Positions 9,901 to 13,914 of a stretch of 64,000 bases of DNA are shown here, one piece after another. Below the pieces are notes generated by a model, which ran no database searches, was not told the origin of the DNA, and saw only the letters and a list, made by a program, of their open reading frames with translations. This DNA comes from Bacteroidales bacterium (lineage in GTDB: Bacteria > Bacteroidota > Bacteroidia > Bacteroidales > UBA932). The translations under genes and the position numbers were made by a program. Each line of letters begins with the position of its first letter. Position 1 is the stretch's first letter. The DNA lies in assembly GCA_017400135.1 (NCBI GenBank), contig JAFPVJ010000022.1, positions 20,433 to 84,432 on the forward strand, given 5' to 3'.

Positions 9901-11497
9901 GGAGGGCAAGCTCAGCGGCGACTTCTCCGTCATCGGCCCGCTGGACCGCCTGTCCCTTTCCAGCCGGGGCGCCCGCCTGGACGACGCCGTCCTTCAGATC
10001 GCCTTCACCAATGTAGCTTACTACCTCAACGGTCCTTTCCATATCGACGACTACGGCATCACCTTCGACGACATTTCCCTCCGGGACCGTTACCGGGGTA
10101 CGGGCACCGTCAGCGGCGGCATCCAATACGACCATCTCAAGGATTTCCGCATGGCGACCGCCATCCGGGTCAACGGGGTGGAAGCTTTCAACACGCAGGA
10201 CGACGGGGAATCTCCCGTCTACGGCAACGTGTCGGCATCCGGCACGGTCAATCTTTCCGGGCCCTTCTCTGCCCTGTGGATGGATATCAATGCCCGCACG
10301 GACGGGGCCGGCACCTTCCACATTCCCCTGCGCAGCAGGGCCGGCGCCTACGGGACCGAACTGCTGACCTTCAAGAAACCCGTGAGCGACGAATGGGTGG
10401 ATCCCTACGAGGAAATGCTCAAGGGTCTGGAAAAGAAAGAAAAGGGCAAAGGCAAGCTGGCGCTGAAGATGCGGGTCAGCGTGCGGCCCGAGGTCCAGTG
10501 TGACCTCGAGCTCGACAAGGAGAGCGGAAATGTCCTCTCCGGCCGCGGCAACGGCACCATCAACCTGGACGTTGGCGGCGAGAAGGCGTTCAACATCACC
10601 GGCGACTATACGCTCAGCGCGGGTGACTTCCATCTCAACGTGATGAACATCGCCTCCAAGAACTTCCAGATCGACGGCGGCAGTTCCATCAAGTTCAACG
10701 GCGACATCATGGACAGCGACCTGGACATCGACGCCCGCTACCAGACCAAGACCTCCCTGGCGAACCTCATCGCAGACAGTACCGCCACCTCCTACCGGAG
10801 AAACGTGGAGTGCCGGCTGAAGGTCTACGACAAGTTGCGGAACCCGCAGTTGTCCTTCTACATCGACATCCCCGACCTCGACCCTTCGACCAAGTCTCAG
10901 GTGGAGAGCGCGCTCAACACCACGGACAAGGTCCAGAAGCAGTTTGTCGCCCTGCTGGTCACCAACAGTTTCCTGCCCAGCGACCAGTCGGGCATCTTCA
11001 ACAACAGCAACATGTTGATGTCCAATATGATGGAAGTCATGTCCGGGCAGCTTAGCAACATCCTCCAGCGCCTGCAGATCCCGCTGGATCTCGGCCTGAA
11101 GTATGCGGAAGGAGAAGGCGGCACCGACCTCTTCGACGTGGCCGTGTCGACCAAGCTCTTCAATGACCGCGTCTCGGTCAACGGCGTGATCGGCAACCGC
11201 CAGTACGCCGCTGATGGCGGCAACCAGGACGTCGTGGGCGACCTGGACGTGGAAATCAAGCTGGACAAGGCGGGAGAGATCCGGCTGAACCTCTTCTCCC
11301 ATTCGGCCGACAAGTATTCCAACTACCTGGACTACAGCCAGCGCAACGGCGTTGGTATCGGCTACCAGCGGGAGTTCAACACTTTCCGCGGCCTGGTCCG
11401 CAGCATCTTCACCAGCAAGAAGAAGCGGCAGGAACTGCAGTCCCAGCCCCGTCCCGAAGAAAAGAAGTCAAGCTTGAAGATCGAAAAAGATGAGTGA
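6989..11497 (+). CDS. tamB: TamB/AsmA-like translocation-assembly module protein; start uncertain (ATC 6989 proposed, first canonical start GTG 7058)
   Basis: About 1500 aa of amphipathic beta repeats with a TamB-type C-terminus (GDLDVEIKL...QRNGVGIGYQREF); the hydrophobic anchor is encoded upstream of 7058. Confidence 0.82.
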   Translation: MAKSKHIVPRILAALLLLLLAGGVLLQSPRVQTALARNLAARLNEGIDGELTIGRVQVLPFKTLILRDVVLTDNDPLSTSFFEPRDTIARIGIATVSFSLKGLTGKKPVTLDKVVVRDGKLNLVTEDHHKTNLKRVFHLSEPKPLEDKGDVLRIKRIEARNFNFTLSNALGKKKPKGHPGINWADLDLKADAKAHDFHITGGKIGGILDDARAKEKSGYSFRNTKGKVEVSRGKVQINDFELTDAESHLNVPLFRMTFDDYRSWDHFVDDVTLEAQLRNSHLGSGTLTGFTGARMPKLEADISKAHFLGTVNDFDLSSFSFREKSGISGGLNGKVSGITHPADSYIDARIQDLQFTTAALGKIIESVAPGKGSAISKYAPGEPFVLDGKLSGPARDLSLTCDLSSPSGGLSGSVKARDLLEKDLPSRLSGSIAVNNFDIGGLLGTDEVKECTLRTWMDASLGKGGVKLGIDSLHIDKAVIHGYEYSNIAGAGTYKDDTFNGRVVCSDPNLNFLFQGLVNLSPKNRNALYKFYFNLGYADLNALGLDKRGPSKASLAVNANFTKTGKDNILGDVDIRNVRLENQEGPHDIGDISIRSFDSNEKQRLTLNSAFADASYTGTLPVTRFIKALADATLGRELPALSGKGTSDTPSSEEGRITLKTYDTRDLLSFVLPGLYIADGTTMNLRLKEDGTLSSDLKSQRIAFKDKYIKNLGLRATDDGEQLLCDLTGEELSAAVKLLGNALQIRADDNRVDLSFGFDNPGEQESNGTIRLACDLDRDADRQLTYDIHVLPSEVVIGGERWGVDSTDISVRQTGVKVPEFVLRNGDQRMEVRGGVSQKGRDTLSVDLNRFNLEPLKALLPSLPDLSGFVSGRARLVSPVTKDRLDLDADLTATETTVSGYDAGTLHLLGLWSNENKEMTFSLQDEIGDQTTLFANGSYRPSNRQLKARARLDSLQAGYASGFLKTVFSKMEGKLSGDFSVIGPLDRLSLSSRGARLDDAVLQIAFTNVAYYLNGPFHIDDYGITFDDISLRDRYRGTGTVSGGIQYDHLKDFRMATAIRVNGVEAFNTQDDGESPVYGNVSASGTVNLSGPFSALWMDINARTDGAGTFHIPLRSRAGAYGTELLTFKKPVSDEWVDPYEEMLKGLEKKEKGKGKLALKMRVSVRPEVQCDLELDKESGNVLSGRGNGTINLDVGGEKAFNITGDYTLSAGDFHLNVMNIASKNFQIDGGSSIKFNGDIMDSDLDIDARYQTKTSLANLIADSTATSYRRNVECRLKVYDKLRNPQLSFYIDIPDLDPSTKSQVESALNTTDKVQKQFVALLVTNSFLPSDQSGIFNNSNMLMSNMMEVMSGQLSNILQRLQIPLDLGLKYAEGEGGTDLFDVAVSTKLFNDRVSVNGVIGNRQYAADGGNQDVVGDLDVEIKLDKAGEIRLNLFSHSADKYSNYLDYSQRNGVGIGYQREFNTFRGLVRSIFTSKKKRQELQSQPRPEEKKSSLKIEKDE

Positions 11498-12200
11498 GAA
11501 AGACAAACTGTACCTGATCCCCTCCCCCTTGGGAGAGAACGATCCCGCGGAGGTGATCCCGGCTCCGGTCCTGGAGAAACTCCGGGACATCCGGGTATTC
11601 GTCGTCGAGGAGTTGCGCACGGCGCGGCGCTACCTGTCCCGGGCCGGACTGAAGGGGCATATCGAGGAGTTGGAATTCCATGTCCTCAACGAGCATACCC
11701 CGGCGTCCGAGGTCGAAGCGATGGCCACCCTTTTCGAGGACGGCCGCGACGTGGGCCTGATCACGGAAGCGGGACTTCCCGCCGTGGCGGATCCCGGGTC
11801 GGCCCTGGTGGCCCTGTGCCACCGGCGCGGCATCCGCGTCGTCCCCTTCGTCGGTCCCTCCTCCCTGATGATGGCCCTGATGGCATCCGGGCTCAACGGG
11901 CAGTCTTTCGCCTTCCAGGGGTACCTGCCGGCGAAGACCGACGAGCGCCGCAGCGCCATCAAGGCCTTGGAAAAGCAATCGGCCGCCCATCACCAAACCC
12001 AGATCTTCATCGAAACCCCTTACCGCAACGACGCGATGATGGAGGACCTGCTGCGCATCTGCGCCCCGGGCACGCGTCTTTGCATCGCGGCCAACATCAC
12101 GATGCCCGACGAGACCATCCTGACCCGTACTGTCGCCGAGTGGCGCAAAAACCCCATAACCTTAGGAAAAAGACCATGCGTATTTCTGATTTTGGCATAA
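11490..12200 (+). CDS. RsmI-like SAM-dependent (tetrapyrrole-methylase family) methyltransferase
   Basis: LYLIPSPLG, EAGLPAVADPG, GPSS, FIETPYRN motifs. Confidence 0.87.
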   Translation: MSEKDKLYLIPSPLGENDPAEVIPAPVLEKLRDIRVFVVEELRTARRYLSRAGLKGHIEELEFHVLNEHTPASEVEAMATLFEDGRDVGLITEAGLPAVADPGSALVALCHRRGIRVVPFVGPSSLMMALMASGLNGQSFAFQGYLPAKTDERRSAIKALEKQSAAHHQTQIFIETPYRNDAMMEDLLRICAPGTRLCIAANITMPDETILTRTVAEWRKNPITLGKRPCVFLILA

Positions 12201-12544
12201 TGGAACTCTCCGGCATGGAGTTCCACGCCTTCCACGGCTGTCTTGAAAGCGAAAAGAAGGAGGGCAACCTCTTCGTCGTGGACTTCAAGGCGCGGTATCA
12301 CCTGGGCGCGGCCGCCCGGAGCGACAGTCTGGAAGATGCGGCCGACTATGCCCGCATTTATGAGATTGTCGCCCGGGAAATGGCGATTCCATCCGACCTG
12401 CTGGAGCACGTGGCGGCACGCATCGCGAAGGCGATCAAGGAAGCGTTCCCCAATGTCTTTACGCGAGTCAGGGTCAGCGTGGCGAAGCGAAATCCGCCCG
12501 TGGGCGGCCCCTGCGCCTGGTCCCGCATCACGGTGCGTATATGA
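12176..12544 (+). CDS. folB: Dihydroneopterin aldolase
   Basis: MEFHAFHGCLESE, DYARIY, LLEHVA, K.NPP; alternative start ATG 12200 overlaps the upstream stop. Confidence 0.92.
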   Translation: MRISDFGIMELSGMEFHAFHGCLESEKKEGNLFVVDFKARYHLGAAARSDSLEDAADYARIYEIVAREMAIPSDLLEHVAARIAKAIKEAFPNVFTRVRVSVAKRNPPVGGPCAWSRITVRI

Positions 12545-13914
12545 ACAGCGTCGCGTTCGTCACCCTGGGCTGCAAGCTCAATTACGCCGAGACGGCGACC
12601 TACGCCCGCGCCTTCAAGGCTGCGGGGTTCGAGGTTGTGCCGTGGAGCCGGGGGGCGGACCTGTTCGTGGTCAATACCTGCAGCGTCACGGCGACTTCGG
12701 ACAGCAAGTCGCGGAGCGCCATCCGCAAACTCCACCGCATCCGCCCGGACGCGCCCATCGTGGTGACGGGCTGCTACGCGGAGTTGCGTCGCGAGGAGGT
12801 GGCAGCCATCGAGGGCGTCGCGCTGGTCTTCGGCGCCGCCGAGAAAGCGCGCCTCGTCCCCGATACGCTCGCACATTTTAGCGCCATCTCAGGGCCGTCC
12901 CGGGCGGGGGCTGCACCTGGAAACGCCTCACTGCGTTCGGCCCCACCGTTCGCTAAGCTCACGGTCCCCCCTCTTATGTTGCCGAGGGTGGCACAGTTTC
13001 CTGGCACAGCCCCCGCCCAGGACAGCCAGCCAACGTCCGACGTTTTCGGGGCCTACAGCATTGGCGGGCGCACCCGCTCCTTCCTGAAAGTCCAGGACGG
13101 CTGCGACAACTTCTGCGCCTACTGCACCGTCCCCTACGCCCGTGGCCGCAGCCGTAACCTCCCCATCTGCGAAGTCGTCCGCGCCGCCCGCGAAATCGCC
13201 GCATCCGGCGCCCGCGAAATCGTCCTCACCGGCGTCAACACCGGCGACTTCGGCCGCAGCACCGGCGAAAGCTTCCTCGACCTCCTCAAGGCCCTCAATG
13301 AGGTCGAAGGCATCGAGCGCTACCGCATCTCCTCCATCGAGCCCAACCTCATCACCGAAGAGATCGTCGACTGGATCGCCTCCGGCACCAAGTTCCTCCC
13401 CCACTTCCACATTCCCCTGCAGACCGGATCCGACGTCCAGCTGAAGCGCATGGGCCGCAAATACACCACCGCCTTCTTCCGCGAGCGCATCGAATACATC
13501 CGCGCCCGCATGGAAGGCCCCGGACGCCCGAAAGTATTCTTCGGCATTGACGTGATGGTCGGCCTGCCCGGCGAAACGCCCGAACTGTTCGAGGAAACGC
13601 GTGCCTTCATCGAATCCGTCCGGCCCTCCTTCATCCACATATTCCCCTATTCCCGCCGGCCCGGCACGCGTGCGGCCCAGTGGCCCGACCAGGTCCCGGA
13701 GGCCGTCAAGGACGAGCGCGTCAAGGTCCTGGAGGCCCTCTGCGACCGCCTGCACGCCGAGTTCGTCGAAGCGAACCGCGGGATCTGCGAGAGAGTACTC
13801 TGGGAATCAAAAGAGAAAGACAGCACCATGTCCGGTTTCACCGGCAACTACATCAAGGTATCCCGTCCCTACGATCCCGCCCTCAGCGGCACCGTCACGG
13901 AAGTTATCCTTTAG
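12541..13914 (+). CDS. mtaB: tRNA ms2t6A37 methylthiotransferase MtaB (MiaB-like radical SAM) carrying an in-frame palindromic insert
   Basis: TLGCKLNYAET, NTCSVT, TGCYA, KVQDGCDNFCAYC (CxxxCxxC), HIFPYSRRPGT. Confidence 0.92.
   Translation: MNSVAFVTLGCKLNYAETATYARAFKAAGFEVVPWSRGADLFVVNTCSVTATSDSKSRSAIRKLHRIRPDAPIVVTGCYAELRREEVAAIEGVALVFGAAEKARLVPDTLAHFSAISGPSRAGAAPGNASLRSAPPFAKLTVPPLMLPRVAQFPGTAPAQDSQPTSDVFGAYSIGGRTRSFLKVQDGCDNFCAYCTVPYARGRSRNLPICEVVRAAREIAASGAREIVLTGVNTGDFGRSTGESFLDLLKALNEVEGIERYRISSIEPNLITEEIVDWIASGTKFLPHFHIPLQTGSDVQLKRMGRKYTTAFFRERIEYIRARMEGPGRPKVFFGIDVMVGLPGETPELFEETRAFIESVRPSFIHIFPYSRRPGTRAAQWPDQVPEAVKDERVKVLEALCDRLHAEFVEANRGICERVLWESKEKDSTMSGFTGNYIKVSRPYDPALSGTVTEVIL
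12893..13027 (-). mobile_element. 135-bp palindromic (MITE/RPE-like) element inserted in frame in mtaB
   Basis: 32-bp imperfect terminal inverted repeats (12893-12924 and 12996-13027, 27/32 identical) enclosing three small hairpins; length is a multiple of 3; encodes an atypical Pro/Ala-rich peptide. Confidence 0.75.

Follow-up and report, generated by a model that had tools for sequence, protein, structure and literature searches.

To our knowledge, the insertion of palindromes into genes in the manner of the Rickettsia palindromic elements (RPE) has so far been seen as a peculiarity of Rickettsia without a mechanism. The RPE themselves, as presented after Ogata (2000, 2002) in the main texts of PMC10969869 and PMC3184786, resemble the repeat family reported here: both are palindromic, dispersed elements of a class of about 105-150 bp, with close to half of their copies lying in frame within unrelated genes, and no known enzyme. 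A likeness also exists to the REP/REPIN repeats with their RAYT or TIRYT HUH transposases, described in PMC3733652, PMC6006769 and PMC3337134 as hairpin-forming non-coding repeats with lineage-specific variants, dimers or clusters and some intragenic copies; RAYT-like genes are present in the same genomes as our family. Bacterial MITEs (ERIC, RUP, Correia/NEMIS and bcr1) are likewise short, non-coding, fold-back sequences that are able to fuse with open reading frames (PMC10969869, main text). Finally, the intragenic invertons of Bacteroides (PMC10028968) and the spacer inversions produced by template switching (PMC8604942) share with the family, as their main texts describe them, a segment between inverted repeats that occurs in both orientations inside a gene and recodes part of a protein. 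Here we show that a palindromic insert in an mtaB gene is one member of a repeat family dispersed through the genomes of rumen Bacteroidales.

The window (the whole stretch of 64,000 nucleotides that was analysed) contains an mtaB gene whose product scored 378.5 bits against TIGR01579 in a profile search (cut-off, 357), and six cysteines (C11, C47, C78, C188, C192 and C195) were invariant among 36 aligned MtaB rows. The Pfam domains UPF0004 and Radical_SAM occupy residues 4-98 and 183-357, and the insert, at codons 118-163, falls between them. Our measurements agree with the preliminary description of this locus: a palindrome of exactly 45 codons lies in frame and without a stop in the linker of an intact mtaB, 27 of the 32 arm positions are paired, and the mismatches comprise four C·A on the plus strand (G·T on the minus strand) and one T·T. 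An AlphaFold2 model built from the 36 aligned rows had a mean pLDDT of 88.8, with residues 121-165 as the sole segment below 50, and the insert is predicted to be a disordered interdomain linker. Because a contig from a second study covers positions 12562-13146 of mtaB, including the element, with 10 differences, the insert is not an assembly artefact. Upstream, at 11490-12544, an RsmI-like ORF (below its cut-off) and a short ORF, which we take to resemble FolB, lead straight into the mtaB start. The coordinates are collected in Table 1.

Table 1. Features of the mtaB element and its host gene (positions in the window)
Feature	Position	Strand	Basis
mtaB, tRNA t6A37 methylthiotransferase, 457 aa, host gene	12541..13914	+	ORF list; TIGR01579
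Whole element, 135 nt, in frame (codons 118-163), structured strand antisense here	12893..13027	-	Sequence, folding, covariance model, AlphaFold2
Arm, 3' half of long stem P1 (minus strand); copy-specific, AAAC end on the plus strand	12893..12924	-	Sequence; arm variability
Hairpin, tandem GA/GA pairs beneath a C(GCA)G mini-hairpin	12925..12941	-	Folding, covarying pairs (helix 6), motif counts
Hairpin, tandem GA/GA pairs, TTA triloop; most length-variable part of the family	12945..12965	-	Folding, alignment
H-type pseudoknot	12969..12995	-	Covariation; fold predicted
Pseudoknot stem 1	12990-12995 with 12977-12983, one bulge	-	Predicted
Pseudoknot 1-nt loop	12989	-	Predicted
Pseudoknot stem 2	12984-12988 with 12969-12973	-	Predicted
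Pseudoknot 3-nt loop	12974-12976	-	Predicted
Arm, 5' half of long stem P1 (minus strand)	12996..13027	-	Sequence

Both strands of the element folded better than 200 of 200 shuffled sequences, the minus strand more strongly (z = -6.6 versus -4.2 for the plus strand with DNA parameters). Read along the structured strand, the element consists of an arm, the pseudoknot, a variable-length hairpin, the GA/GNA hairpin and the other arm. The internal hairpins of the minus strand were present as previously described, with one of the two triloops being TTA rather than GNA. The CCCTC/GAGGG pairing, earlier read as a stem, is not nested: it crosses another covarying helix, TG-TGCC/GGCA-CA, and with it forms a predicted H-type pseudoknot (loop lengths, 1 and 3 nt), of which it is the second helix and which covaries between subfamilies. 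The earlier architecture, a palindrome with hairpins, stands in these parts; it did not include the pseudoknot or the flipping of the core in place that is described below. When the element was compared with Rfam, no family exceeded its gathering threshold (best match, 17.5 bits against 80, E = 3.4), and the same search with ten variant loci of the repeat family matched tRNAs alone.

We analyzed the base pairing across the family. In a 30-row MAFFT alignment, 86% of cells were paired (slid controls, 39-47%) and two-sided changes were found at 33 of 48 pairs; in 98 rows fitted to the model, an alignment that leans towards the model, 93.5% were paired. The pseudoknot loop had the TC/GA state in 218 of 240 armed copies, largely by ascertainment. 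Among 20 armed copies with a non-TC loop, a Watson-Crick partner was found in 16 (11 GT/AC and 5 GC/GC) and was missing in 4, and the 16 represent a small number of subfamily states and are not independent of one another. A pattern that left the partner bases of the pseudoknot free yielded GT/AC in 7 of 7 matches. The copies are related by descent, and neither these covariation counts nor the motif counts below are independent events. The family is conserved at the level of base pairs, not of protein.

Loop motifs are distributed unequally between the strands. Counted over 268 copies, closed C(GNA)G mini-hairpins, with all four N occurring, numbered 369 on the structured strand versus 32 on the other, and tandem GA/GA numbered 134 versus 1. 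Such mini-hairpins are much more stable as DNA than as RNA, according to the main text of PMC13037366. Because these motifs lie on one strand and the structured strand is independent of host-gene direction, single-stranded DNA is favoured over RNA. The wobble pairs of the arms, which had also been cited for a structured minus strand, show only a modest bias over the family (207 G·T versus 146 A·C in 224 copies); the strand preference therefore rests on the loop motifs and not on arm wobbles. On single-stranded DNA, the conserved centre probably forms a knot.

The preliminary description had expected many copies, which holds for the relatives of this bacterium and not for its own genome. There, blastn found one partial second copy, the covariance model gave three matches below 1e-6, and a structural descriptor identified five armed copies, compared with none in the reversed genome; the genome thus holds few and diverged members, about six in total (five armed and one partial). 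In contrast, the element matched 166 of 400 genus genomes by blastn. The exact pseudoknot pattern was found in 66 of 150 well-assembled genus genomes (control matches, zero), the main pattern was missing from 84 of 151 such genomes and elsewhere had 1 to 27 copies, and five chosen genomes gave 31, 36, 18, 5 and 9 covariance-model matches (maximum, 36 copies per genome). A pattern scan of genomes of all species returned at least 123 stretches; 78 of 80 titled rows were from Bacteroidales or Bacteroidia, mostly from the rumen, and one titled row among the matches listed names Ca. Cryptobacteroides. A looser pattern applied to 301 genomes of the order revealed a variant in two other families; this pattern skips copies of the window's subtype, and silence there is no evidence of absence. 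Viral contigs gave 0 matches for two patterns and a phage collection gave none, while a plasmid collection gave one 42-nt match that is attributable to chance.

Several variants were observed beside the main type. The window's own genome has a genome-specific subtype with a GGAA loop (G000, C4:36000, C10:27890 and C14:6619), whose pseudoknot pairs are CCCGC/GCGGG, CCCTC/GAGGG and one degenerate pair, and which lies outside long ORFs where checked. In a genome from another family (G426), three near-identical GT/AC-type copies (L436, L439 and L441) share a downstream hairpin and are all at contig ends, which suggests a recently spread longer unit. An arm-less core-like sequence on a contig titled Treponemataceae (L101:~2450-2530) may reflect transfer, decay or misbinning. 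Two relatives (G120 and G136) carry a second structured repeat with a knot-like core of C-runs and G-runs (L403, L405, L426 and L432), which builds back-to-back and tandem composites with the mtaB-element family, and in one genome (L271:1090-1250, G339:C11) a different hairpin element is nested within the pseudoknot loop of a family copy.

Placement in other coding sequences, as anticipated earlier, was confirmed by in-frame copies in many unrelated genes. Of the at least 123 loci, 76 distinct copies had enough flank, and for 36 of these the reading frame was open and both flanks matched the same homologue. Of the 36, one was a chance match without an element, which leaves, among the matches listed, 35 of 75 distinct copies from this unbiased scan inserted in frame into genes (antisense in 18 cases and sense in 17, in 28 host ORFs). 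We also parsed the mtaB linkers of relatives, for which 76 of 111 loci were usable; the 35 left out include the element-bearing G204 and G145, and the genus rows are best matches to an inserted query and thus biased towards long linkers. The linker measured 57-72 residues in 30 of the 76, versus 107 in the window copy; 15 of the 76 contained a TC-type core (11 oriented as in the window copy and 4 reversed), and further linkers contained a GT/GC-type core or unrelated palindromes. In a quick tree of 73 rows, supported by SH-aLRT alone, the element subtypes occupied different clades that had empty neighbours, a pattern suggestive of repeated insertion into mtaB. Clean empty sites were found at an intergenic locus (empty in G330, where 19 nt are present, and filled in G339) and for a composite of about 291 nt in G120 that is missing from its sister G136. 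The expectation of empty sites was therefore borne out in mtaB linkers and in sister species. The accompanying expectation of a target duplication was not, as the direct repeats at the ends of 224 copies equalled those of shuffled pairs. The family is thus dispersed, with empty sites and conservation of base pairs, and not a single copy shared by all orthologues and conserved as protein.

Other inserts at the same kind of site deserve mention. The mtaB linkers of eight loci (L055, L060, L066, L068, L072, L280, L282 and L285) contain other, unrelated in-frame palindromes, some in tandem, which may resemble GIY-YIG-associated repeats; the mtaB linker seems to be a hotspot where several repeat families land. 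The partial copy in the window's own genome (L199, G000:C27:26458-26557) lacks the pseudoknot and is inserted, in frame, into the linker encoded by a 459-aa ORF, named from its sequence as a putative E2-like acyltransferase, and full copies with opposite orientations occur in the same acyltransferase linker of relatives (L082 and L087).

Arms were present in 224 of 240 copies, with a median length of 30 bp and a median total length of 135 nt in the armed copies, and boundary frequencies in these 224 revealed no conserved end motif. The arms, described earlier as terminal inverted arms, are not conserved terminal repeats: their sequence differs from copy to copy, whereas their complementarity stays. 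Identity in G339 (25 rows, one of which is probably no member) fell from 0.91 for the core to 0.80 for the inner arm and 0.34 for the outer arm; the corresponding values for G088 (24 rows) were 0.82, 0.47 and 0.31. The outer arms of G339 being near random while its cores are at 0.91, simple recent copying is no explanation. Orthologous copies of sister species showed many arm differences, each one compensated. In the G120/G136 subfamily, a recent one, the arms are near-identical at several loci, and some copies are chimeric, with arms joined from two different copies. The arms appear to travel with new copies and to drift later in pairs, and copies appear to recombine via the core. We also considered that one arm might be an inverted copy of the target, and rejected this on little evidence: the clean empty site of G330 resembles neither arm, and arms travel in G120.

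The core is found in either orientation between such arms. Four mtaB pairs had homologous arms (scores of 25, 23, 21 and 20 of 28) and opposite cores, and the core was likewise opposite at an intergenic site compared between G339 and G330; a sister genome (G282) has a reversed mtaB core with different arms (14/28) and a tandem partial copy. As computed, flipping the core would keep the window's mtaB frame open. According to the main text of PMC8604942, template switching between inverted repeats leads to arm homogenisation and spacer inversion; template switching therefore explains both observations here without selection. No flip or excision within a strain was seen in the contigs of the four runs that best cover the gene, a source in which contigs drop rare forms. 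One opposite-strand joint (side 32 nt, 88% threshold) occurred in the contigs and probably derives from a relative. In an RNA run, no fragment from this organism covered the element.

We looked for a linked HUH or GIY-YIG nuclease, as suggested earlier, and none was bounded by the element. Among 40 Y1_Tnp loci, no nuclease gene was bounded by it (0/40): two true copies were present, neither as a gene end, and the Y1_Tnp genes carry their own inverted or tandem repeats, unrelated to the element. Pairs of copies flank housekeeping genes. Clustering of neighbour proteins revealed no recurrent transposase or nuclease (one IS-like ORF adjoins L400), and no autonomous insertion sequence with the element's ends was present among neighbours or arm-less copies. 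GIY-YIG nucleases were rejected as the linked enzyme, as none of the GIY-YIG loci inspected was bounded by the element; a small stand-alone GIY-YIG ORF of the window's genome (L369, G000:C10:1569-1679, about 85 aa from ATG) has no family copy nearby. RAYT/TIRYT-like HUH genes of about 290-330 aa with weak Y1_Tnp scores were also observed in this genome and its relatives (L358:895-1773 in G000:C3, L354-L363 and L449-L472), flanked by AT-rich inverted or tandem repeats. A Y1_Tnp match was found in 92 of 151 genus genomes, namely in 57 of 67 element-positive versus 35 of 84 element-negative genomes, a contrast inflated by kinship, and in 30 of the 31 genomes that hold five or more copies. A RAYT/TIRYT-like HUH tyrosine transposase of 290-330 aa, acting in trans, is the best candidate for the enzyme, which we put forward tentatively. 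IS200/IS605 enzymes target the lagging-strand template (PMC6006769); the copies showed no bias between leading and lagging strands (91 versus 94), for which our measure is a weak proxy.

We consider it probable that the insert is a non-autonomous mobile element recognised in trans as folded single-stranded DNA, with arms and core shaped by template switching. A conserved core (the predicted pseudoknot and two GA/GNA hairpins) would sit between copy-specific complementary arms; an enzyme acting in trans would recognise the folded single-stranded DNA in vivo and spread copies, so that the element would move as a structured single strand. Polymerase template switching would keep the arms complementary, flip the core and let the arms drift in pairs, while recognition and recombination between copies would hold the core. 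Insertions would survive where a disordered loop of about 40 residues is tolerated, as in the interdomain linker of MtaB. What counts against this model is that there is no element-bounded nuclease, end motif, target duplication, strand bias or observed excision. On these data, selection on the core is not separable from conversion between copies or recent spread.

An alternative, which we regard as unlikely, is that the core is a DNA structure selected by the host, such as a site at which proteins of replication, repair or the nucleoid bind or prime, and that it moves only by recombination and gene conversion between copies, without a dedicated transposase. The missing enzyme, end motif and duplication agree with it, and the conservation of core and inner arm next to near-random outer arms inside one genome fits it as well, as does the persistence of orthologous copies with compensated arm changes at a flank identity of about 80-88%. 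In addition, primase sites and single-stranded DNA promoters carry mini-hairpins, as the main text of PMC13037366 reports. However, a structure serving the host is difficult to reconcile with the 84 of 151 genus genomes that lack the main pattern, with counts from 1 to 27 elsewhere and with precise empty sites in sister species, and conversion alone hardly reaches coding linkers.

It is far less probable that the element works as RNA (as an antisense RNA, an mRNA structure or a ribozyme-like pseudoknot) and that its spread is incidental. With RNA parameters the minus strand again folds best (z = -8.3 versus -5.1), and loops of 1 and 3 nt are accommodated by an ordinary H-type RNA pseudoknot. 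However, orientation is independent of the host gene (18 versus 17), no Rfam family matches, and strand specificity is confined to GNA triloops and tandem GA, since GNRA (37 versus 26, structured versus other strand in the 268 copies) and UUCG (1 versus 2) do not show it. Slightly less credible still is a programmed intragenic inverton, in which recombinase-driven inversion of the core would produce two MtaB loop variants within one population: the opposite cores between homologous arms in four mtaB lineages, the stop-free frame of the flipped core and the recoding intragenic invertons of Bacteroides (PMC10028968, main text) would agree with it, whereas the arms offer a site-specific recombinase no common sequence, the loop is predicted to be disordered and the four best runs showed no same-strain flip, in contigs that drop rare forms. 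A reading in which selection acts on the peptide as part of MtaB, with the palindrome as a by-product, is largely refuted, because despite the open frame and the long linkers of many relatives, the linker peptides of these relatives are unrelated and originate from one strand or the other as well as from palindromes of other families, 30 of 76 linkers are short, and the same core occurs between genes and in 28 other host ORFs.

Returning to the mobile-element model, its widest form would be a new class of non-autonomous mobile DNA that is defined by a natural single-stranded DNA pseudoknot with GNA/GA hairpins and not by its terminal sequences, and that has an unlinked HUH enzyme moving it in trans, arms free of sequence constraint and a core flip that offers two 40-residue loops per host gene; we hold this form to be doubtful as a whole. 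If true, such a class would continually supply housekeeping proteins with new peptide sequence. The inserts add about 40 residues to conserved proteins, which bears on annotation and domain alignment in the genus, and the element, being short and defined, offers a substrate with which to search for the enzyme responsible for such movement. Natural single-stranded DNA structure more complex than a hairpin is called rare in the main text of PMC5737381, and a covarying pseudoknot with DNA-type loops would be such a structure.

No description of the family was found in the main texts of open papers, and with neither an Rfam nor a literature match it is apparently undescribed so far, in keeping with the earlier suggestion of a new family. 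"Atypical secondary structures" adjoin the TnpA-REP genes of Bacteroidetes subclass 2.6, according to the main text of PMC6006769, and could bear on this novelty. Compared with invertons, flips in our family are seen between species rather than inside a clone, the sequence of the repeats is not fixed, and the invertible part is itself a dispersed repeat. Unlike MITEs, the family has neither conserved terminal inverted repeats (outer-arm identities of 0.34 and 0.31 in two genomes) nor a target-site duplication, and no matching insertion sequence occurs among neighbours or arm-less copies. In comparison with REP/REPIN, conservation is reversed, with a conserved centre and free ends and, by boundary frequencies, no GTAG/CGTC foot; the copies do not flank a transposase gene, as noted for the Y1_Tnp loci, and about half are intragenic. 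The family works like RPE as these are described, yet is none: it belongs to another phylum, lacks the terminal CGTC tag, and encodes no single conserved peptide but unrelated arm-derived parts from two strands and several frames, while it has a conserved pseudoknot core with GNA/GA hairpins that flips between its arms. With a similar insertion frequency in a large rumen genus that has hundreds of genomes, empty sites and subfamilies, the origin and spread of such insertions become traceable.
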